Positions 39,120 through 52,741 of a stretch of DNA of 64,000 nucleotides are shown piece after piece. The stretch is from an uncultured Clostridia bacterium. Lineage in GTDB: Bacteria > Bacillota > Clostridia > Christensenellales > UBA1242. The notes under the pieces are model-generated. The model did not search any database, was not told the DNA's origin, and saw only the letters and a list, made by a program, of their open reading frames with translations. Location of the stretch: the NCBI GenBank assembly GCA_934772445.1, contig CAKVMJ010000002.1, positions 9,475 through 73,474 on the forward strand, read 5' to 3'. Made by a program: the position numbers and the translations under genes. Within the stretch, counting starts at the first letter, position 1. Every line of letters begins with the position of its first letter.

Positions 39120-39815
39120 ATGAGCAACAATGAAATAAATAATAAGGTGCAGATTGCAGGAGAGGTGGTAAGCGAACCAAAGTTTAGTCACGAAATATAT
39201 GGCGAAAACTTTTATGAGTTTGATGTGAAAGTTAATAGACTTTCAAATAGTTTTGATACCATTCCAGTAACTGTTTCAGATAGACTTTTAAATGGTAAGG
39301 AATTAAGTGTTGGTAAATTTATAGAGGGAATTGGTCAATATAGAAGCTATAATAAATTAGATGGTGAAAAGAGCAGGCTTCTTCTAACTATATTCTTGCG
39401 TGAGTTAGAGGTTAAAGAAACTATCGAACAAACAAATAGTATTCAAATAGTTGGTTATGTATGTAAAGAACCGATTTATAGAACAACACCTTTTAATAGA
39501 GAAATATGCGATGTTTTACTAGCAGTTAACAGAAATTATGGGAAAAGTGATTATATTCCTTGCATTGCTTGGGGTAGAAACGCTAGATTTGTTAAAAACT
39601 TTAAGGTTGGCGATAAAGTGAGAGTGGAAGGAAGAATACAGAGCCGTGAATACCAAAAGAAAGTTGAAAACGAAGAAACTCTAACTAAAACAGCGTATGA
39701 GGTTTCATTAAGTAAGATTAGTTTGGTAAATGATAGTAATATAACATTTAGCGAAACTTCAAGGGAAGCCGATGTTGTTAGTAAGGAAATTATAAAAGGG
39801 GTTTATGCGATATAA
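39120..39815 (+). CDS. tandem OB-fold, SSB-like protein
   Basis: Two internal repeats of an SSB-type OB fold (KVQIAGEVVSEPKFSH..., SIQIVGYVCKEPIYRTT...GDKVRVEGRIQSREY). It lacks the acidic SSB C-terminal tip. Confidence 0.6.
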   Translation: MSNNEINNKVQIAGEVVSEPKFSHEIYGENFYEFDVKVNRLSNSFDTIPVTVSDRLLNGKELSVGKFIEGIGQYRSYNKLDGEKSRLLLTIFLRELEVKETIEQTNSIQIVGYVCKEPIYRTTPFNREICDVLLAVNRNYGKSDYIPCIAWGRNARFVKNFKVGDKVRVEGRIQSREYQKKVENEETLTKTAYEVSLSKISLVNDSNITFSETSREADVVSKEIIKGVYAI

Positions 39816-39822
39816 TGATTTT

Positions 39823-39865
39823 AAAAAAAGAAGCTTAGTCAATGCTGTTTGAAACTAGCAAAATA
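39823..39865 (+). repeat. left inverted repeat (IR-L)
   Basis: AAAAAAGAAGC, 13 nt, then TTTGAAACTAGCAAAATA. Both blocks recur reverse-complemented at 45560-45604. Confidence 0.8.
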
Positions 39866-39868
39866 TAA

Positions 39869-39901
39869 GCACTTTAATCTACAAAAGATTAAAGTGTTTT
39901 T
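39869..39901 (+). terminator. rho-independent terminator just inside IR-L
   Basis: Stem cactttaatc/gattaaagtg followed by a T-run. Confidence 0.7.
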
Positions 39902-39940
39902 CCTCTCTCTTAACTAAAAAAAGAAACAAAAATTACTGAA

Positions 39941-39989
39941 GTTGTCAAGGATTGTCGCCAATAGCGACATACACTTTAACCTTGACAAC
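39941..39989. other. nested hairpin A
   Basis: Outer 10-bp stem GTTGTCAAGG/CCTTGACAAC encloses an inner GTCGC-CAATA-GCGAC hairpin and an 11-nt asymmetric bulge. It contains ATAGCGACA. Confidence 0.7.
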
Positions 39990-40040
39990 AAAGAATATTT
40001 GTTTACCATAATAAGAAAGAGAAGAAAAAATAACAGCAAA

Positions 40041-40082
40041 AAGCGAAAGTGTGTTATGTTTACCAACACTTTCGCTTTTTGC
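40041..40082 (+). terminator. terminator-like hairpin between the nested hairpins
   Basis: 12-bp stem aagcgaaagtgt/acactttcgctt followed by a T-run. Confidence 0.6.
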
Positions 40083-40106
40083 ATTCTTTAATTTAGTTTA
40101 TAAGTG

Positions 40107-40160
40107 TGTGCTTGTCTTCGGTGGAGCATAGCGACACCGACTTGTATCAAGACAAGCACA
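40107..40160. other. nested hairpin B
   Basis: Outer 12-bp stem TGTGCTTGTCTT/AAGACAAGCACA encloses an inner CGGTG...CACCG hairpin and a 9-nt asymmetric bulge. It contains ATAGCGACA. Confidence 0.7.
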
Positions 40161-40198
40161 TGTTTAACTGCCAAATTATAGTTTTATATCTTCAAACA

Positions 40199-40227
40199 TT
40201 GAAGAATATTTAATTTCGTGCTATAAT
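40199..40227 (+). promoter_or_regulatory. sigma-A-type promoter of the first methyltransferase gene
   Basis: TTGAAG, a 17-nt spacer, then TATAAT with a TGn extended -10. The -35 lies inside the palindrome TCTTCAA-aca-TTGAAGA (40189-40205). Confidence 0.55.
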
Positions 40228-40255
40228 TTTAGAAAATTTTAACAAAGGAAAAGTT

Positions 40256-41209
40256 ATGCCATTAAAAGTATGTAGTTTATTCAGTGGAATTGGTGGAATA
40301 GATTTAGGTTTCAAGCAAGCAGGTTTTGAAATAGTTTGGGCAAATGAAATAGATAAAGCAGCTTGTGAAACATACAAATCAAATTTTGGTGATGAACATT
40401 TAGTAAATTGCGATATTAGAAAAGTTGACACAAAGAATATTCCTGACTTTGATGTTTTAGTTGCAGTTTTTCCTTGTCAACCTTTTTCATTAGCAGGCGA
40501 ACAAAAAGGATTTTGTGATGCAAGAGGACAATTGTTTTTTGAAATAAAAAGAATTATACATGCCAAGATGCCAAAAGTAATTTTTTTAGAGAATGTTGCA
40601 AATTTGATTGAACACGATAATGGTAAATCTTTTGAACAAGTTTATTTATCTTTAATGGAAGAAGGTTATGCAGTTAGATATGCCACACAAAATCCAAAGA
40701 CACATGCAAATATTCCTCAACAAAGAGATAGAGTTTTTATAGTTGCCTTTTTAGATATAGAACAATGTAATAATTTTCAATATCCCGAGGAAACACTATT
40801 AACAACGAAGCTTTCCGATATAGTGAATATTTATGAAAAGCATGATGATTGCTACTATTATACAAATGATAATAGGTATTATATAGATATGAAAAAATAT
40901 ATAATTCATAGTGATTTATTTTATAGAATTTTTGATTTTGGCTTAAAGACAAATGGTTTTACCATTTGCCCAACATTGACAGCTACTATGGGAACAATGA
41001 AGGACAGAATACCTATTATTAAAGATTTTTATGGAATAAGAAAGCTTACACCGTATGAATGTTTAGCCTTGCAAGGTTATCCCAAGGATTTTATTTTTCC
41101 TAAAGGAATAACGCTATCTCAAGCTTACAAACAAATAGGAAATTCTGTTTGCATTCCTATTATTAAAAATATTGCAGTAAATATTTATAATATTCTTAAT
41201 AAAAAATAG
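40256..41209 (+). CDS. DNA (cytosine-5)-methyltransferase M1
   Basis: Motifs I (FSGIGG), IV (FPCQPFS), VI (ENV), VIII (QQRDR) and X (GNSV), in canonical order. Confidence 0.9.
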   Translation: MPLKVCSLFSGIGGIDLGFKQAGFEIVWANEIDKAACETYKSNFGDEHLVNCDIRKVDTKNIPDFDVLVAVFPCQPFSLAGEQKGFCDARGQLFFEIKRIIHAKMPKVIFLENVANLIEHDNGKSFEQVYLSLMEEGYAVRYATQNPKTHANIPQQRDRVFIVAFLDIEQCNNFQYPEETLLTTKLSDIVNIYEKHDDCYYYTNDNRYYIDMKKYIIHSDLFYRIFDFGLKTNGFTICPTLTATMGTMKDRIPIIKDFYGIRKLTPYECLALQGYPKDFIFPKGITLSQAYKQIGNSVCIPIIKNIAVNIYNILNKK

Positions 41210-41228
41210 GTGCGTTTTAGTTTGATAT

Positions 41229-41264
41229 ATGTTATAATATTAATGTTATAGCAAATATGTTATA
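41229..41264 (+). promoter_or_regulatory. three phased ATGTTATA repeats upstream of the C gene (putative operator or C-box)
   Basis: ATGTTATA at 41229, 41243 and 41257, an exact 14-nt spacing. They overlap an extended -10 (TGtTATAAT, 41230-41238). Confidence 0.35.
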
Positions 41265-41276
41265 TAAGAGGTATAT

Positions 41277-41477
41277 ATGGAATTTAACAATAAGTTAAAA
41301 AAAGTACGAACATTGTTGAATATAAGTCAAGAAACGATGGCGAGAGAGTTAAATGTATCATTTGCAACAATCAATAGGTTAGAAAAGGGCAAAACATTGC
41401 CAAGTTATAAGACATTAAAAAAATTTGAAATTTTATGCCAAAATTATAATATTATATTGGGGGATAAAAATGTTTAA
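41277..41477 (+). CDS. XRE-family HTH controller (C) protein
   Basis: 66 aa. The HTH is ISQETMARELNVSFATINRLEKGKTLPS. It is located inside an R-M cluster, and its 3' end overlaps the next MTase gene. Confidence 0.75.
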   Translation: MEFNNKLKKVRTLLNISQETMARELNVSFATINRLEKGKTLPSYKTLKKFEILCQNYNIILGDKNV

Positions 41478-42537
41478 AGGATTATCATTATTTGCAAGTG
41501 CAGGAATTGCGGAAATGAATTTATCAAAATGTAATATTGATATAAAAATTGCAAATGAACTTATCCCAATTAGATGTAAAGTACATGAATATTGGAATCC
41601 CAAAACAAAAGTTATTTGTGGAGATATTACAAAAGATGAATTAAAACAAAATATAATTAATGAATCTATAAAAGAAAATATAGATTTCATTTTAGCAACT
41701 CCACCATGTCAAGGGGTATCTTTGATTGGCAAAAACAAAAGTAACGATGATATGTTAAGAGATGAAAGAAATTTCCTAATTTTCCACGCATTTGATATTG
41801 TTGATGCAATAAAACCAAAAGTTATTGTAATTGAAAATGTTGCAAGATTTTTAGGTATGAAATTTCCTTATAATGGAAATATGTACAATATCGAAAGTAT
41901 ATTAAAAGATAAATATGGCTCTCAATATTCTATTTGTGTATCGGTGTATAATGCGGCCGATTATGGCATTCCTCAAAATAGACTTAGAACAATAATGGTT
42001 TTATGTCAAAAAGGATATTCTTTCGTAATGCCTAAAAAATTAAAGCCAATAACGGTTAGAGATGCTATTGGATATTTGCCATCTATTGAAGCCGGAGAAA
42101 AAACTAACATAAAAAATCATAATGCGAGAAAACATTCTCAAAATCATATTTTGTGGATGAAACATACCCCAACAGGTAAATCGGCAACTGAAAATGAAAA
42201 ATACTATCCACAACATGAAGATGGCACACCATTAAAATGTTATTCAGCATCATATAAAAGAATAGAATGGGATAAACCTGCTCCAACGATTACAATGCGT
42301 AATGATGCCATTTCTTCACAAAGTAATGTTCATCCAGGCAGATTATTAGCTGATGGAACATATAGTGATGCGAGAGTTTTAACTCTTAGAGAATTATTTA
42401 TTTTAAGTTCTATTAATCCTGATATTGATGTACCAAATTTTGCAACGGATATTCAAATTAGACAAATGATCGGAGAGGCTGTCCCACCTATGTTAATGGA
42501 ACAGGTTTGTAAAAATATAAAAAAGGATGAAAATTAA
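41470..42537 (+). CDS. DNA (cytosine-5)-methyltransferase M2
   Basis: LFASAGIAE (variant motif I), PPCQGVS, ENV, QNRLR, RVLTLRELF, IGEAVPP. I prefer the ATG at 41470, after a GGGGGA RBS. Confidence 0.8.
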   Translation: MFKGLSLFASAGIAEMNLSKCNIDIKIANELIPIRCKVHEYWNPKTKVICGDITKDELKQNIINESIKENIDFILATPPCQGVSLIGKNKSNDDMLRDERNFLIFHAFDIVDAIKPKVIVIENVARFLGMKFPYNGNMYNIESILKDKYGSQYSICVSVYNAADYGIPQNRLRTIMVLCQKGYSFVMPKKLKPITVRDAIGYLPSIEAGEKTNIKNHNARKHSQNHILWMKHTPTGKSATENEKYYPQHEDGTPLKCYSASYKRIEWDKPAPTITMRNDAISSQSNVHPGRLLADGTYSDARVLTLRELFILSSINPDIDVPNFATDIQIRQMIGEAVPPMLMEQVCKNIKKDEN

Positions 42538-43583
42538 TGAAAGGATTATCATTATTTAGCAGTGCAGGTATTGCTGAAACATATTTTAAAGATTGTGGAA
42601 TAGATATAGTTGTTTCAAATGAATTAATAAGGAAAAGAAATGAATTACATTCTGCACTATATCCTAATTGTCAATCTATTTGTGGAGATATAACCAATAG
42701 CAATGTTTTTAACGAAATATTAAACATAACCCAAAAAGAAAAATGTGAATTTTTACTAGCGACACCACCATGTCAAGGAATGAGTAGTTTAGGGAAAAAA
42801 GATTATGATAACGATAAAAGAAATTACTTAATTTTTTATGTTTTTGACATGATTGATAAAAATGATTTTAATTATATTTTAATAGAAAATGTACCAAAAT
42901 TTTTGAAAATGTATTTTCCCTATAATAACAAATTAGTTCCTCTTCTTGATATTATTAATGATAAGTATGCTAATAAATATAATATAGATTCCTTTGTGTT
43001 AAATGCGAAAGACTATGGTGTGCCACAAAGTCGTCCGAGGGGGTTTATTAGGTTGTGGAAAAAAGGTTTAATTTGGGGAAAACCACAAAAACAAAAGATT
43101 ATTACACTAAGAGATTCTATAGGGAATTTACCATCACTAGAATCTGATGAAGACAGTGGTATTAAATGGCATTTTGCAAAGCATCATAATGAACGAGAAA
43201 TAATAGCAATGAAACATACAAAAGAAGGGTGTTCTGCAATGAAAAATGAAATTTTTTATCCTAAAAAATCAAATGGAGAAAAAATAAAAGGATTTCATAA
43301 TACTTATAAAAGAATGAAATGGGATGAACCATGTCCAGCAAGAGCGATGAATAATGGTAATATTGGAGGTCATAATAATGTTCATCCAGGTAGACTTTTA
43401 GCGGATGGCACATATAGTGATGCACGAGTTTTAACATTAAGAGAATTGTTTATAGTAAGCTCATTACCTGCAGATTGGAATTTGCCAGATTGGTGTACCG
43501 ATAATTTAATTAGAACAGTTATTGGGGAAGCCATTCCACCAATGCTTAGTAAATCAATAATTGACATGATAGGAAAAAATTAA
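42537..43583 (+). CDS. DNA (cytosine-5)-methyltransferase M3, a paralogue of M2
   Basis: LFSSAGIAE, PPCQGMS, ENV, QSRPR, IGEAIPP. It shares an identical 26-aa block with M2 (NVHPGRLLADGTYSDARVLTLRELFI). The start overlaps the M2 stop (TAATG). Confidence 0.8.
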   Translation: MKGLSLFSSAGIAETYFKDCGIDIVVSNELIRKRNELHSALYPNCQSICGDITNSNVFNEILNITQKEKCEFLLATPPCQGMSSLGKKDYDNDKRNYLIFYVFDMIDKNDFNYILIENVPKFLKMYFPYNNKLVPLLDIINDKYANKYNIDSFVLNAKDYGVPQSRPRGFIRLWKKGLIWGKPQKQKIITLRDSIGNLPSLESDEDSGIKWHFAKHHNEREIIAMKHTKEGCSAMKNEIFYPKKSNGEKIKGFHNTYKRMKWDEPCPARAMNNGNIGGHNNVHPGRLLADGTYSDARVLTLRELFIVSSLPADWNLPDWCTDNLIRTVIGEAIPPMLSKSIIDMIGKN

Positions 43584-43593
43584 GGAGTTGTTT

Positions 43594-45084
43594 ATGATTA
43601 ATTTAGAAAGGAAGAAAGACCATAAGTGGATTTTTCAAAAAAATATTAGCTCTTCAGAATTAATGAAAGCATATGTAGAAGCTTTAAGTGATATTGGGAA
43701 CAATATTAATCTTGATAATGTTAAACAAAAATTAAGAAATAAAAATTTATATAAAGGCAGGTCTACATCTGGAAATGTAAATACTATGGGAGTTAGATTT
43801 AGCCAAATGTGTTTCTATATGTTTGGGTATAAAATTGGTAAAAAGTTTATGCCTTCTCCTATGACTTTAAATATTCTAAATTCTGATAATAATAAAATTA
43901 ATATAAAGTCAAATTCACTAATAAATTTATTTAGTATGCAGTTTCCTCAACCTTATAGTAACACTCCTGCAACTTTCAATATTTATTGCGGAAGATTAAT
44001 TGTTAAATTATTGTTAGATAAACGGATTGATAATAAATTATATATCGATGAAATGATTTGGTTTCTTCCGTTTTTGGAAAAAATTAATGAAAATATTTAT
44101 AATGAATTAATTGAAAGCATTTTAGAGTTTAGAAATTTGTCATATATGGAGAAATTGAATTTGTTTAAAAGTGTAAGAGACTATGATAATGTGTTTTCTA
44201 ATGTTACACATGAAGTAAATTATTACTTTTTAAGAATTTTTCAATCATTTGGAGTACTAGATATTAATAAAGATGAAAATCATAATGAGGGCCATTTATT
44301 TTCATTTAATCATGGTAGAGGTGTTACCAAAAGAACTGATGCATATAAATCTGGAGCAAAAGTGTCTGGATATGTCACTCTCTCAAAAGAAGTTGTTTCA
44401 GATGCAACCAAATTAATTGATAAATTTTCAGCTTTTGATTATCCAACAACACAGGCATCTGAAGGAATTTTTTCATTAAGAGATTGGCTTACTGAATTGT
44501 ATGAAGTTGAGCCACTAGAGTATCTTAATTGTATTTCAAATAAATTTACACAAGACAAAATAATTACAGATGTAATAACAAGAATGACTTATGTTTCAAA
44601 GTATGGTAGTAGTGATGGTAAAGAATTTGAACAAGCACTAAAACCATTTATTGAATTGTTTAGGGAAACTGAAAATGTTGAAATTATTAGTGGTGCTGGA
44701 AATACTGATTTATTGTGTGCTATGAGAGATATAGATACTGATGTTGTATATAATATGAATGTTGATGCAAAGACTCGAAAGTCAGCACTAGAAGAAATTA
44801 ATGCTCGAAGAATTAATAATCATTTAGAAAAACATGGTTCAAAGTTTTGTATTATCGTAGCGCCTAAGTTTGCAATGGGTGTTAAAAAGGATATCGAGGG
44901 ACATAAAATAGTTGTTGTACGTGCTGAAGAATTAGGTGCATATTGTTATAGAGAATGCACATCTTCTCGCGATGGATATGCAGATTTTACATCTTTATTA
45001 AATATTATAAAAAGCAAGTACGGTTCTGATATTACTGAAGAACTTAGAGATTTAACTCAATATAGATATGGAATTGCTGTTTAA
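43594..45084 (+). CDS. type II (possibly IIS or AlwI/Bsp6I-like) restriction endonuclease
   Basis: About 496 aa, the last gene of the MTase operon. A C-terminal PD-(D/E)XK-like pattern (E...TDLLC...NVDAK). The family assignment is only an impression. The ATG at 43594 follows an AAGGAG RBS. Confidence 0.6.
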   Translation: MINLERKKDHKWIFQKNISSSELMKAYVEALSDIGNNINLDNVKQKLRNKNLYKGRSTSGNVNTMGVRFSQMCFYMFGYKIGKKFMPSPMTLNILNSDNNKINIKSNSLINLFSMQFPQPYSNTPATFNIYCGRLIVKLLLDKRIDNKLYIDEMIWFLPFLEKINENIYNELIESILEFRNLSYMEKLNLFKSVRDYDNVFSNVTHEVNYYFLRIFQSFGVLDINKDENHNEGHLFSFNHGRGVTKRTDAYKSGAKVSGYVTLSKEVVSDATKLIDKFSAFDYPTTQASEGIFSLRDWLTELYEVEPLEYLNCISNKFTQDKIITDVITRMTYVSKYGSSDGKEFEQALKPFIELFRETENVEIISGAGNTDLLCAMRDIDTDVVYNMNVDAKTRKSALEEINARRINNHLEKHGSKFCIIVAPKFAMGVKKDIEGHKIVVVRAEELGAYCYRECTSSRDGYADFTSLLNIIKSKYGSDITEELRDLTQYRYGIAV

Positions 45085-45207
45085 TAATTTATATTCATAA
45101 AACATATTGAAACAGATATTAAAATTCTCAATAACTGGTAATATAAATAATGGGGAAAATATGGGAAAAAAGAAAATAAACGCAAAAAACACAAATTTAT
45201 AAAAACA

Positions 45208-45402
45208 TTGATACAGTCCAAATATTTTTATATTACTTTAGTAATTATAATAGGTCTTTTGCTCACTATGATATTTTCAAATATATATATAGATTGTGAT
45301 ATTGTATTTGCTATTGGTTCAGGTGTTTTTGGTTCAGCTTTTGTCACACTTTTAATTGAAATTTTAAATGATATTCGTGAAAATAAAAATATTAAAAGAT
45401 AA
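45208..45402 (+). CDS. small two-TM membrane protein, doubtful
   Basis: 64 aa with a TTG start and no clear RBS. An out-of-frame 12-codon ATG ORF with a good RBS begins at 45161, so this may be a remnant. Confidence 0.3.
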   Translation: MIQSKYFYITLVIIIGLLLTMIFSNIYIDCDIVFAIGSGVFGSAFVTLLIEILNDIRENKNIKR

Positions 45403-45486
45403 AAAAATTTACTTTATCGCATTAAATTAATCATTATCATAAACATTCCGAATAATTATAATTACTTTATTCTTATTCATAATAAA

Positions 45487-45524
45487 AAATAACACGGACC
45501 TTGATTTCTCTTGGTTCGTGTTAT
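45487..45524 (-). terminator. inward-facing terminator-like hairpin near IR-R
   Basis: Stem AATAACACGgACC/GGTtCGTGTTATT. The T-run follows only on the minus strand, yet no minus-strand gene lies upstream of it. Confidence 0.45.
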
Positions 45525-45559
45525 TCATGAATAGTATAAACTATAATTATTGAATTAAT

Positions 45560-45604
45560 TATTTTGCTAGTTTCAAAATTGCCAGCCCTTAGGCTTCTTT
45601 TTTG
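45560..45604 (-). repeat. right inverted repeat (IR-R)
   Basis: The reverse complement reads AAAAAAGAAGC, 15 nt, then TTTGAAACTAGCAAAATA. It matches IR-L in an 11-nt and an 18-nt perfect block. Confidence 0.8.
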
Positions 45605-45703
45605 TACTTTTCAAGGCTTTTTTGTTAATTAATTTGACTTAAATTTGTTAATTGTATATAATTTAAAAAAGAACTTTGATTAATGGAAAAAGGAGGCTAA
45701 GAT

Positions 45704-46816
45704 ATGAAAGATAAGAATGTTGTTATTTTAGATATACAATCATCTAAGATTTGTGTTTTAGTGGGTTCTGAAGGCGTTAATCAAAATTTAAGAATAGTTA
45801 GTAGAAGTGTTTTAGATTATGCTGGTTTTATGCAAGGGAAATTCTTGTTAGAGGAAAAACTTGAAGATGAAATATCAGATATATTAAATTTAGCGCAGAT
45901 AAATTATGATAGAAAAATTGAAAAAGTTTATGTTGGCGTACCAGCAGAGTTTTGTTTTAATGGCTTGAATGAGGCGGAATTACAATTTAAAATGCCTATG
46001 AAAATAAAGCAAAAACAATTGGATATGATGTTTGAAAGAACAAATCCTTTAAATATCACTGGCAAAACATTGATAAATCGTTCGCCAATTCAATATTTAG
46101 TTGATGAGAGAGAAATTGAAAACCCAGTTGGAAGTATAGCAAGTAGAGTATGGTGTAGAATAAGTGAAGTGTTTGCATCAAATTATTTTTTAGATATTAT
46201 CGGGGGTGCATTAGAAAAATGTAAGATTAGATCCGTGGAATTTGTAAGTGCGGAGCTAGCTGAAGGCTTATATTTAATTGAGGAAAATATAAGAAAAGAT
46301 GGTGCTATAATTGTTGATTGCGGATATATTACCACGGCATTGTTATCGGTAAAAAATGAGGGTTTGCTGGATTTAAGGTGCTTTTCGATGGGTGGCGGAT
46401 ATATCACAAGTGATTTAGCGGAGATTTTAGAGCTTAGTTATGATGAAGCTGAAACGCTAAAAAGAAAACTTGTTTTAACAATTAAGCCAACAGAACTAGA
46501 TTTTTACCAGTTGCCAATGGATAAAACTATAGATGTAAAAACCGCAAATGATATTGCACTTGCCCGAATAGATGCGATAATTGATGGGATAAAGAAGTGT
46601 TTAGGTAAGTTTAGAATGGAAACAGATACTATTTATCTAACAGGCGGTGGTATCGCAAAAATCAAAGGAATTAAATATTATTTAAGTAATAGATTGAATA
46701 AAAAAATAAAAATTGAGTTTCCAAAACAGTGTAATTTAGATGGTTTTGAAGATTCAAGTTCGATGGCAATTTTGAAGATGGCTGTCGTTTTAGAAAAAAA
46801 ATATCAAAATTCTTAG
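45704..46816 (+). CDS. ftsA: FtsA-like actin-fold cell division protein
   Basis: 370 aa, immediately upstream of ftsZ. It has actin/HSP70-fold phosphate motifs (ILDIQSSKICVLVG, DCGYITT, LTGGGIAKIKG). It is shorter than a typical FtsA. Confidence 0.7.
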   Translation: MKDKNVVILDIQSSKICVLVGSEGVNQNLRIVSRSVLDYAGFMQGKFLLEEKLEDEISDILNLAQINYDRKIEKVYVGVPAEFCFNGLNEAELQFKMPMKIKQKQLDMMFERTNPLNITGKTLINRSPIQYLVDEREIENPVGSIASRVWCRISEVFASNYFLDIIGGALEKCKIRSVEFVSAELAEGLYLIEENIRKDGAIIVDCGYITTALLSVKNEGLLDLRCFSMGGGYITSDLAEILELSYDEAETLKRKLVLTIKPTELDFYQLPMDKTIDVKTANDIALARIDAIIDGIKKCLGKFRMETDTIYLTGGGIAKIKGIKYYLSNRLNKKIKIEFPKQCNLDGFEDSSSMAILKMAVVLEKKYQNS

Positions 46817-52250: not shown

Positions 52251-52326
52251 GGGAGCTTAGCTCAGTTGGGAGAGCATCTGCCTTACAAGCAGGAGGTCGT
52301 AGGTTCGAGCCCTACAGTTCCCACCA
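52251..52326 (+). tRNA. tRNA-Val (anticodon TAC)
   Basis: The cloverleaf folds by hand: acceptor gggagct/agttccc, anticodon loop cTTACaa, T-loop ggttcgagcc and an encoded CCA. Confidence 0.9.
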
Positions 52327-52420
52327 AATCTTAAGTGCCTGTTCTAATTTGAACAGGCATAAATTGATTTAAGAAACAAATTAAGAATTAAATCATATAA
52401 GATTATAGATAAAATTATAT

Positions 52421-52495
52421 GCGGGAGTGGCTCAGTGGTAGAGCGTCGCCTTGCCAAGGCGAATGTCGCGAGTTCGAATCTCGTCTTCCGCTCCA
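52421..52495 (+). tRNA. tRNA-Gly (anticodon GCC)
   Basis: Acceptor gcgggag/cttccgc, anticodon loop tTGCCaa, T-loop agttcgaatct and an encoded CCA. Confidence 0.9.
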
Positions 52496-52571
52496 AAAGA
52501 TTAAAGGAAGCATAATTTTATATTATGCTTTAAACTTTAAATAAAGTAAGAGAGAAACTAGGGAAGAATAT

Positions 52572-52646
52572 GGCACCATAGCCAAGCGGTAAGGCCAAGG
52601 TCTGCAAAACCTTTATGCCCCAGTTCGAATCTGGGTGGTGCCTCCA
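52572..52646 (+). tRNA. tRNA-Cys (anticodon GCA)
   Basis: Acceptor ggcacca/tggtgcc, anticodon stem aaggt/acctt with loop cTGCAaa, and an encoded CCA. Confidence 0.9.
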
Positions 52647-52654
52647 AATCTTAT

Positions 52655-52741
52655 GCTGAAGTGGCGGAATAGGCAGACGCACAGGACTTAAAATCCTGCG
52701 GGGGCGACTTCGTACCGGTTCAAGTCCGGTCTTCAGCACCA
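52655..52741 (+). tRNA. tRNA-Leu (anticodon TAA)
   Basis: Acceptor gctgaag/cttcagc, anticodon loop cTTAAaa, a long variable arm and an encoded CCA. Confidence 0.9.

Follow-up and report, generated by a model that had tools for sequence, protein, structure and literature searches.

How can a restriction-modification (R-M) system reach a conserved cell-division and sporulation neighbourhood of a chromosome when it brings no recombinase and leaves the genes on both sides intact? The question is raised by an island lying between an SSB-like gene and ftsA in an uncultured Clostridia bacterium (contig CAKVMJ010000002.1, assembly GCA_934772445.1), within a stretch of 64,000 nucleotides that was analysed as a whole and is called the window below. 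An initial annotation of this DNA had described the island as bracketed by imperfect inverted repeats of about 44 bp, and had proposed a non-autonomous mobile cassette, an invertible segment, or two copies of a repetitive extragenic palindromic (REP)-like element that captured the genes. The answer favoured here is that the island is probably a non-autonomous derivative of an integrative element, comparable to a cis-mobilizable element (CIME), that was moved in trans by the serine recombinase of its family acting at a TT dinucleotide, and that came to rest in the loop of a terminator.

The insertion itself is seen by comparing alleles. Contigs encoding exactly identical SSB-like and FtsA proteins were retrieved for comparison with the window. 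Within the same species, the island is present in four contigs (L002, L007, L008 and L009) and absent from two (L003 and L006); their flanks are 99.3-100% identical to the window, those of the island-free contigs 99.3-99.6%. When the two empty alleles are aligned with the window, the breaks fall at 39838 and 45588 and overlap ambiguously by 5 nt (CTTAG), in agreement with the earlier statement that the repeats bracket exactly the non-core material. After the stop codon of the SSB-like gene, the empty sites read ...AAAAAAAAGAAGC TTAG GCTTCTTTTTTT..., a perfect A-tract/T-tract hairpin (A8-GAAGC-TTAG-GCTTC-T7, -13.4 kcal/mol) that, by its predicted fold, is shaped like a bidirectional intrinsic terminator. 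In the occupied allele this hairpin is split: GAAGC-TT is followed by inserted DNA running from AGTCAATGCTG to GCCAGCCC, and then by TT-AGGCTTC. The inserted DNA corresponds to window positions 39837-45588 (5,752 bp) with TT on either side, a dinucleotide that occurs once in the empty sites and at both 39835-36 and 45589-90 in the window. The insertion entered the loop of the terminator hairpin of the SSB-like gene. At this locus the junction is ambiguous over CTTAG, and it is the wider family, described below, that identifies the repeated unit as a dinucleotide. The features of the two junctions are as follows.

39120 to 39815, plus strand: host gene (SSB-like) preceding the element, which occupies the terminator of this gene
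39823 to 39834, plus strand: left arm of the split host terminator (A-tract and GAAGC); host DNA, outside the element
39835 to 39836, plus strand: left copy of TT, putative crossover core or 2-bp duplication
39837 to 39865, plus strand: left end of the element, 11-nt tip AGTCAATGCTG and 18-mer TTTGAAACTAGCAAAATA (written TTAGTCAATGCTG-TTTGAAACTAGC)
45560 to 45588, minus strand: right end of the element, minus-strand tip GGGCTGGCAAT and the 18-mer
45589 to 45590, plus strand: right copy of TT
45591 to 45603, plus strand: remainder of the split host terminator on the right (AG of the loop, GCTTC, T-tract); host DNA
45634 to 46816, plus strand: downstream ftsA with its promoter-like site, left untouched by the insertion

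The SSB-like protein (Pfam SSB, E = 5.5e-24; NCBIfam PRK05813, E = 1.6e-90) is identical on contigs with and without the island, FtsA (Pfam FtsA) is identical on the empty-site contigs, and the promoter-like site of ftsA (45634-45662; TTGACT-17-TATAAT, 11 of 12 matches) lies outside the element.

Knowledge of the empty site changes what can be called a repeat. The 18-mer TTTGAAACTAGCAAAATA occurs at 39848-39865 on the plus strand and at 45560-45577 on the minus strand, with 100% complementarity and 5,694 nt between the arms. The 64 kb contain no other exact copy. When up to 3 mismatches are allowed, 4 matches are found where 0.77 would be expected, and 4 is reached in 0 of 100 shuffles. The 11-nt block AAAAAAGAAGC occurs at 39824-39834 (plus) and 45593-45603 (minus), with one further copy elsewhere (3 matches against 0.38 expected). 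Both inverted blocks lie where the initial annotation had placed them, with spacers of 13 and 15 nt as claimed. Of its 44-bp repeat, the inner 29 bp, made of an 11-nt end-specific tip and the 18-mer, belong to the element, but the outer blocks (AAAAAAGAAGC/GCTTCTTTTTT) are host DNA: they are the arms of the pre-existing terminator and are intact in the empty sites. The 11-nt "repeat" is thus a warning for annotation, as split host palindromes can pass for part of the terminal repeats of a mobile element. The two genuine 29-bp ends agree at 20 of 29 positions, with a perfect 18-mer starting 11 nt from the core on each side, and they form an imperfect dyad around that core. Joined as right end, TT and left end, they make an attP-like sequence of about 62 bp (TATTTTGCTAGTTTCAAAATTGCCAGCCC-TT-AGTCAATGCTGTTTGAAACTAGCAAAATA), and the joint of a circle would read ...GCCAGCCC TT AGTCAATG....

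The same alleles bear on whether the repeats are sites of programmed inversion or host REP-like copies that captured the island. The repeats are indeed inverted, they bracket the island, and the 18-mer is dispersed in related genomes. Nevertheless, all five independent contigs that hold the island or its right part (L002, L007, L008, L009 and the window) show a single orientation, and no invertase was found in the island with Pfam. As for capture, the 18-mer is absent from the empty allele (L003, L006), in which the terminator is intact, and relatives examined at the SSB-like/ftsA junction show no repeats without the R-M genes. The 18-mer proves to be dispersed over many genomes, but as the ends of discrete insertions with unrelated cargo, and in the window only at the ends of the island; in dozens of other genomes these ends act as insertion junctions. 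Both explanations are therefore highly improbable. The third proposal of the initial annotation, a non-autonomous mobile cassette with imperfect terminal inverted repeats (TIRs) and no recombinase, is borne out: the island is a discrete insertion and a member of a mobile family.

This family was delineated by a scan for the 18-mer in one genome per species. The exact 18-mer was found in 111 loci of species-representative genomes, overwhelmingly of uncultured Clostridia or Christensenellales-type gut metagenome-assembled genomes, often with several loci per genome. A family-type 13-nt tip adjoins it in 66 of the 111 loci, and 66 have an A-run just past the tip; the remaining loci are subfamily variants or chance matches within genes. 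Two tips recur, one like the left end of the island ((T/A)T followed by AGTC-N7) and one like its right end (N7-(G/A)CC(C) followed by T(T/A)). Members fall into three size classes, namely copies of about 100 bp, the size of miniature inverted-repeat transposable elements (MITEs), accessory or defence cassettes of 0.8-3.4 kb, and autonomous members of 10-11.5 kb. In 25 complete elements delimited by hand (0.83-5.75 kb), the core is fixed per subfamily: TT in most elements, with AGTC/CCC tips, and AT with ATAG/ACC tips. Even in the raw set of automatically paired ends, an identical dinucleotide (TT/AA or AT) stands on both sides in 43 of 61 pairs.

The targets of the family resemble that of the island. 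For 33 bona fide complete elements, some of them from a metagenome scan, empty sites were rebuilt from left flank, dinucleotide and right flank. The median folding energy is -10.1 kcal/mol in the rebuilt sites and -3.7 in chimeric flank pairs (Mann-Whitney p = 2e-6), and 58% of the rebuilt sites fold at -8 kcal/mol or lower, compared with 8.5% of the chimeric pairs. Among well-folding sites, the dinucleotide is located in the loop. The stems (4-9 bp, with loops of 3-9 nt) differ in sequence, as in L060 (GCACGGA/TCCGTGC), L084 (GAGGTG/CACCTC) and L120 (AAAAACAAAC/GTTTGTTTTT). These folding energies of curated elements replace earlier flank statistics (longest complementary run, and G/C count within the run), which were noisy because pairing of A-tracts with T-tracts inflates the controls and because spurious end pairs were included.

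The cargo of the family is diverse. It comprises a TMEM164-like membrane protein, SAM methyltransferases, a peptide deformylase, an APH-type kinase, an extra tryptophanyl-tRNA synthetase and an ABC transporter, as well as an Eco47II R-M system, a CBASS-like pair (AGS_C and SAVED), an AAA_21/OLD-like ATPase, DUF6994, an HTH-ankyrin protein, a histidine phosphatase and, judged from its sequence only, an HD-type protein. The TMEM164-like cassette, which has an odd right tip (AAAATTAATGAGT), is found at different terminators in different species (L040, L071 and L103, with partial copies in L031 and L082), and so is the APH cassette (L100 and L113). Such recurrence of a cassette at different terminators in different species is direct evidence that enzyme-less members move, and the presence of the TMEM164-like cassette in different species-representative genomes implies recent spread between species. 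At the lower end of the size range, copies of about 100 bp (right end, hairpin and left end) form head-to-tail arrays with one common dinucleotide between units (L081, 3240-3600; L026, 2306-2500; L049; L090). New copies of this size seem to insert beside resident ones, and the arrays, which are not circles, show that the arrangement of right end, TT and left end exists in chromosomes too.

Which enzyme moves such elements? No recombinase domain was found in the island with Pfam, NCBIfam or PADLOC, so that it encodes no large serine recombinase (LSR) of its own. Likewise, neither Pfam searches of about 30 cargo proteins nor all-vs-all clustering of open reading frames (ORFs) of at least 150 aa from L010-L122 gave a recombinase or a transposase; the recurrent proteins are host genes, as judged from their sequences. 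A lead to the putative partner came from the non-coding DNA of the island, whose first 340 nt or so form a structured module. The segment 39835-40185 is 66-95% identical to dozens of loci, and the R-M genes have no nucleotide match in any other locus. Alignment of 25 modules with a consensus fold defines four hairpins, A-D, and a further hairpin lies inside the right end.

39869 to 39901, plus strand: hairpin A and T-run, standing in for the host terminator against read-through from the SSB-like gene
39905 to 40006, plus strand: CTCTCTTAAC remnant and long hairpin B (outer stem 39923-39934/39994-40006, inner stem 39941-39950/39980-39989)
40036 to 40082, plus strand: hairpin C, a perfect 17-bp stem
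40104 to 40176, plus strand: hairpin D and module end ...TAACTGCCA (GTGTGCTTGTCT...AAGACAAGCACA, inner stem GGTG/CACC, loop GAGCATAGCGA)
45487 to 45525, no strand assigned: cargo-side terminator-type hairpin inside the right end

Both hairpins that the initial annotation had noted inward of the repeats fold strongly. Hairpin A (39866-39906; -14.8 kcal/mol, z = -7.9) runs into a T5 tract, begins 33 nt inward of the left junction and is predicted to be able to terminate transcripts of the SSB-like gene; it is conserved in the module alignment of the family and follows the recombinase gene in autonomous relatives (L241, L247). The right-end hairpin (45482-45530) reaches -19.1 kcal/mol on the plus strand and -15.5 on the minus strand, where it has a T6 tail, and other right ends of the family bear at this position a hairpin unrelated in sequence. 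Hairpin B has an inner part of -21.7 kcal/mol, an outer stem that covaries (AU to GC in 10 sequences), and a promoter-like TTGACA-16-TACCAT in and after its 3′ arm. In hairpin C (-26 kcal/mol, z = -7.5), five of the seven predicted pairs show compensatory changes on both sides, in 5-11 sequences. Hairpin D folds at -30.8 kcal/mol; across the family, its outer stem (GTGCTTGTCT/AGACAAGCAC) is invariant, its loop (GAGCGAAGCGA) is conserved, and its inner stem covaries as GGTG/CACC, GTTC/GAAC, GCTG/CAGC and GGCG/CGCC. The G.T pairs of the module are sensible on one strand only. No Rfam family was found for the structured module, either in the whole window at gathering thresholds or in 39700-40350 at E <= 10, and the plasmids of PLSDB hold no match to it.

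The only match of the module outside the family is a partial one, to hairpin D, in one unannotated phage-like faecal contig, where it comes after an HUH Rep gene (REP_ORF2-G2P) and before defence genes; one IMG/VR contig is alike. A metagenome scan for motif D gave at least 120 loci. Among the 120 listed, Rep stands beside the motif in 53, its gene ending in most of them 150-200 nt before D; the core of a cassette end lies within 600 nt in 21, and an LSR is found in nine. Hairpin D may be a Rep origin or nick site. Preceded by a C-like hairpin, the motif (GTGCTTGTCT...AGACAAGCAC) lies at L123 4001-4051 and L124 4967-5012, where defence genes come after it (PAPS-reductase/DUF4007 genes, and GmrSD with type I HsdM); elements without cassette ends have it too.

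Autonomous relatives with matching ends emerge from these loci. In L241, a bona fide family end abuts a host gene, and just inside lie an LSR, Rep, an HTH protein and hairpins C-D. This LSR (500 aa; Resolvase, Recombinase and Zn_ribbon_recom domains) belongs to a large clade whose members are about 500 aa long; the four relatives examined in context all show the same block: a protein of about 207 aa, a small ORF, Rep and LSR. In L247, L249, L250/L251, L253 and L256/L257, a hairpin, a family end, the dinucleotide TT or AT and one half of a terminator follow the LSR gene within about 100 nt; defence cargo occupies the other side of the autonomous members. Two elements are complete in their split terminators. 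That of L250 (about 10.1 kb) carries a type I R-M system and MazE, and that of L257 (about 11.5 kb) lies between genes for SerRS and an inositol phosphatase; the cargo in L256/L257 (1-11600) is a type I R-M system whose several hsdS genes and tyrosine recombinase constitute an hsdS shufflon. Only two tyrosine recombinases occur in the surveyed loci, the one of this shufflon and one in host DNA beyond the LSR-proximal end. The MITE-sized copy at L247 1549-1643 is the far boundary of an LSR-Rep element of about 10 kb, which may be nested or composite. An apparent end beside the LSR in L221 was rejected as a chance match inside a coding region, and the LSR-Rep elements of L126, L153 and L209 have no family ends; a single LSR clade is linked to the family. 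In L126 (1988-7046, a viral contig), a B-like hairpin lies between Rep and LSR, with a second LSR on the opposite strand and no family ends, which suggests that the Rep-hairpin-LSR core predates the end family.

The island can be read against these relatives piece by piece. The LSR-adjoining end of L249 is identical to window 39835-39859 (25 nt, TT included), and the right end of the island shares about 80% identity with the end nearest the recombinase in the autonomous element of L256/L257. In an alignment, hairpin B proves homologous to the region between Rep and LSR, the CTCTCTTAAC stretch falling directly before the expected position of the LSR start codon; the autonomous elements also contain a match to motif D. 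Since the left end, hairpins A, B, C and D and the right end are all retained, the island corresponds to an autonomous element minus the LSR ORF and the 207-aa/Rep block. It has kept both ends and lost the enzyme genes, and autonomous relatives have matching ends; lacking a recombinase where its relatives encode an LSR, it is filed as a non-autonomous derivative and not as a full member. The family is one of LSR integrative elements of uncultured gut Clostridia that insert into the loops of A-tract/T-tract terminators.

With these relatives in hand, a DDE transposase acting from elsewhere, for example of the IS30 type, can be weighed as the mover of a MITE-like or mobile-insertion-cassette-like island. 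Enzymes of the IS30 type make duplications of 2-3 bp, and IS1630 of Mycoplasma targets terminators. The imperfect 29-bp TIRs, the 2-bp junction repeat, the many short non-autonomous copies and the absence of an enzyme gene inside would all suit such a mechanism. However, no DDE transposase was seen in about 60 elements or their surroundings, nor did the clustering of ORFs from L010-L122 yield a recurrent transposase. The only enzyme genes inside elements with family ends are LSR and Rep, the autonomous partners with matching TIRs encode an LSR and none encodes a DDE enzyme, and the duplicated dinucleotide is fixed per subfamily, as expected of a recombination core. A DDE mechanism is thus quite unlikely.

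The module invites a different reading, in which it would encode a bridge or seek RNA that guides an IS110/IS1111-type DEDD recombinase to hairpins with a 2-nt core. Subterminal inverted repeats, a 2-nt core, palindromic targets and a structured non-coding module with a promoter-like site beside one end are all features that it would explain, and elements of this kind are reported to target REP hairpins and to be able to move modules (PMC12288879). Nonetheless, in the 25 elements the module shows no complementarity of at least 7 nt to tips or flanks at a consistent position, only A/T runs, and the target stems differ in sequence, so that a fixed guide could not read them. There is no DEDD gene among those found and, as said, no Rfam match; copies without the module are inserted alike. 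This possibility is very improbable.

The presence of Rep makes a single-stranded route more serious. Here an HUH Rep or another structure-specific enzyme would move the cassette as single-stranded DNA and join it to an extruded terminator hairpin, the 18-nt repeats pairing into a hairpin with TT in its loop, by a logic like that of IS200/IS605 or of CTX-phage integration. The targets are alike in structure and not in sequence, with TT in the loop and variable stem and loop sizes; the autonomous relatives encode an HUH Rep, beside the conserved hairpin D in the 53 listed loci mentioned above; and the module folds on one strand only, as its G.T pairs show. Yet the elements have no preferred orientation with respect to local GC skew (32 versus 40, p = 0.41), whereas IS200/IS605 elements do, and a single-strand mechanism at the replication fork is accordingly not favoured; the elements of the family also have TIRs, and no Y1 TnpA gene was seen in them. 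An LSR lies at the element end in every autonomous member seen, an identical 2-nt core is a hallmark of serine recombinases, and MITE-sized copies, L100 and L113 have no hairpin D yet are inserted alike. Transposition of this kind appears unlikely.

What, then, are the hairpins for? Judged from the copies themselves, B-D are dispensable for insertion, because the MITE-sized copies, L100 and L113 are without some or all of them. The non-coding pieces kept in enzyme-less copies suggest functions in cis: hairpins C-D probably serve Rep, in replication or transfer of the excised circle, and hairpin B may act in regulation of the LSR or as a binding site for an accessory factor. A single-strand origin of the ssoA type was also considered for the module. 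Its published conserved motifs are RSB (TTATGCCGAGAAAATTT) and CS-6 (TAGCGT) (PMC4598088), of which the module gives only weak echoes, TAGCGA in the loops of B and D. Given that hairpin B corresponds to the Rep-LSR intergenic region, the idea is retained for C-D alone, as a possibility.

Serine recombinases exchange strands at a 2-nt core identical in both partners, and the subfamily-specific dinucleotide is consistent with this chemistry. In the favoured mechanism, an LSR supplied in trans would pair the joint of right end, TT and left end, a dyad around TT, with a terminator whose loop contains TT, and strand exchange would take place at the 2-nt TT core. The exchange would leave TT on each side and halve the terminator stem, giving the 11-nt blocks of the initial annotation, and excision would restore the terminator exactly. 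The hairpins of the element just inside both ends would replace the lost terminator, and the neighbours would keep their termination and promoters, which would make terminator loops low-cost landing sites.

Several observations weigh against this account. The 64-kb window holds neither an LSR nor a Rep gene, and the excised circle between donor and target is a presumed intermediate. The exact R protein of the R-M cassette is found at one site only, so that there is no second insertion site for this cassette, whose own mobility would rest on its presence or absence among contigs and on its relatives. About 40% of the rebuilt sites fold poorly, mostly those of MITE-sized copies adjoining other copies. 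In the L256/L257 subfamily, the LSR adjoins the other, right-type tip and not the left-type one. Lastly, the core does not lie at a constant distance from the A- or T-tract (loops of 3-9 nt, stems of 4-9 bp), which is unusual for a serine integrase reading double-stranded DNA, and which may mean that structure is recognised or that a different or additional enzyme takes part.

The last point leaves room for a bolder proposal, tentative and on balance doubtful: that this LSR clade reads the structure of the terminator hairpin, or cruciform, and not its sequence, and that it services a distributed system of cassettes shuttling defence and accessory genes across species. Autonomous elements would then carry LSR and Rep, and enzyme-less cassettes and copies of about 100 bp would keep the attachment (att) ends and an origin-like module recognised by Rep. 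If true, the distributed cassettes would form an integron-like exchange network without a fixed platform. The phylum of these gut Clostridia is reported to lack integrons.

The cargo delivered to the SSB-like/ftsA junction has, by its domain content, the composition of a type II R-M system with a controller, that is, three C5 methyltransferases, an HTH_3 protein and a REase_II enzyme.

40256 to 41209, plus strand: M1, C5 cytosine DNA methyltransferase, with its own promoter-like site at 40199-40227
41277 to 41477, plus strand: C, 66-aa HTH controller-type protein (Pfam HTH_3, E = 9e-13)
41425 to 42537, plus strand: M2, C5 methyltransferase; start at 41470 according to gene callers
42537 to 43583, plus strand: M3, C5 methyltransferase (Pfam E = 2e-46; PADLOC PDLC03384, E = 1.8e-130)
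43588 to 45084, plus strand: R, type II restriction endonuclease, 498 aa
45208 to 45402, plus strand: 64-aa hydrophobic ORF between R and the right-end hairpin

M1 matches Pfam DNA_methylase (E = 3e-82) and PADLOC MTase_II PDLC03272 (E = 8.5e-105). M2 (Pfam E = 3e-48; PADLOC PDLC03384, E = 3e-119) is a paralogue of M3, and the tandem pair (41425-43583) shows register-keeping direct repeats 1,052 nt apart. The tandem pair and the separate promoter-like site of M1 suggest that the system has either two specificities or an asymmetric recognition site. R matches PADLOC REase_II PDLC03533 over nearly its full length (E = 5.2e-37), and Pfam, NCBIfam and PDB gave no match to it. For the 64-aa ORF, no family match was obtained in Pfam, NCBIfam or PADLOC; its DNA is conserved in L008 and L009. 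On the host side, ftsA and ftsZ are confirmed from the ftsA-ftsZ-spoIIGA-sigE-sigG block of the initial annotation, and four tRNA genes are clustered downstream of that block, at 52251-52738 (Rfam tRNA, 60-71 bits).

How the family relates to known systems can now be considered. The recombinase gene of Tn4451 lies at one element end, and the family LSR gene does so too. Tn4451/Tn4453 and Tn5397 (with TnpX and TndX) are likewise integrative elements of Clostridia that are moved by an LSR and have many possible targets; Tn4451 recombines at identical 2-bp sequences with low target specificity (PMC5704250). As in the family, the 2-bp sequence is present in both partners and the dinucleotide is left on both sides. 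The family differs in its core, which is TT or AT and not GA, in its targets, which are loops of A-tract/T-tract terminators, and in its partner gene, an HUH Rep (REP_ORF2-G2P) with a hairpin motif instead of a MobV relaxase. Its cargo is mostly defence or accessory, and it includes many enzyme-less cassettes and copies of about 100 bp, such as the recombinase-free island itself among the former. Durrant et al. (2022) described LSR clusters that integrate at many sites, one of them with a conserved TT core and T/A-rich flanks (PMC10083194). The words terminator and palindrome do not occur in that paper, which makes no mention of non-autonomous derivatives, and its main multi-targeting clade carries DUF4368 (PMC10083194), a domain not detected in the LSRs of the family.

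The island has lost its integration and replication genes and keeps both recombination ends, and in this it resembles a CIME, defined as a decayed integrative element with attL and attR kept that is mobilizable only with help (PMC5704250). CIMEs usually lie at one specific site, in tandem with a helper, whereas the decayed forms of the family are single, at many terminators of many species, reach down to about 100 bp, and keep internal non-coding modules with covarying structure. A parallel can also be drawn with MITEs and with mobile insertion cassettes, such as those derived from IS231 in Bacillus cereus: short TIRs enclose a passenger gene or no gene at all, a transposase is absent, copies are multiple, and autonomous partners have common ends. 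The difference is that the partner enzyme of the family is most likely a serine recombinase and not a DDE transposase, and that its target is structural, a terminator loop. Integron cassettes share with the family small units often holding one accessory or defence gene, a hairpin-forming recombination site, an enzyme encoded elsewhere and the occurrence of tandem arrays (L081, L026). However, the ends of the family have no GTTRRRY core and no attC R/L-box architecture, there is no tyrosine integrase or attI platform, and the cassettes are scattered over the terminators of the chromosome. Finally, palindromic, hairpin-forming intergenic DNA is a safe insertion site for several insertion sequences as well. 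IS1397 inserts in REP loops, and IS1630 duplicates a whole inverted repeat. Their enzymes are of the DEDD or DDE type, whereas the family splits the hairpin at the loop and its targets are not a repeated sequence family; ISPpu9 of the IS110 family is reported to target REP sequences (PMC12288879).

In the open-access full-text literature, no description was found of the terminator-loop target rule, of the architecture combining LSR, Rep(G2P) and hairpin D, or of how enzyme-less cassettes and copies of about 100 bp have proliferated, any of which may have been described elsewhere. The family is apparently undescribed, and in logic its nearest relatives are the Tn4451/Tn5397 group and the multi-targeting LSRs. 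A serine recombinase that chooses terminator loops with a TT core would follow an unusual and possibly structure-directed target rule, and the short attP-like joint (about 62 bp), with many natural examples of targets, is of interest for engineering. For the locus studied here, landing in a loop together with replacement terminators explains how an R-M system arrived in a conserved cell-division and sporulation neighbourhood with no recombinase of its own and with its neighbours unharmed. More broadly, with cargo that includes type I and type II R-M, CBASS-like, GmrSD and OLD-like systems, a kinase, a deformylase and a tRNA synthetase, the family looks like a substantial route for the passage of defence and accessory genes among uncultured gut Clostridia.

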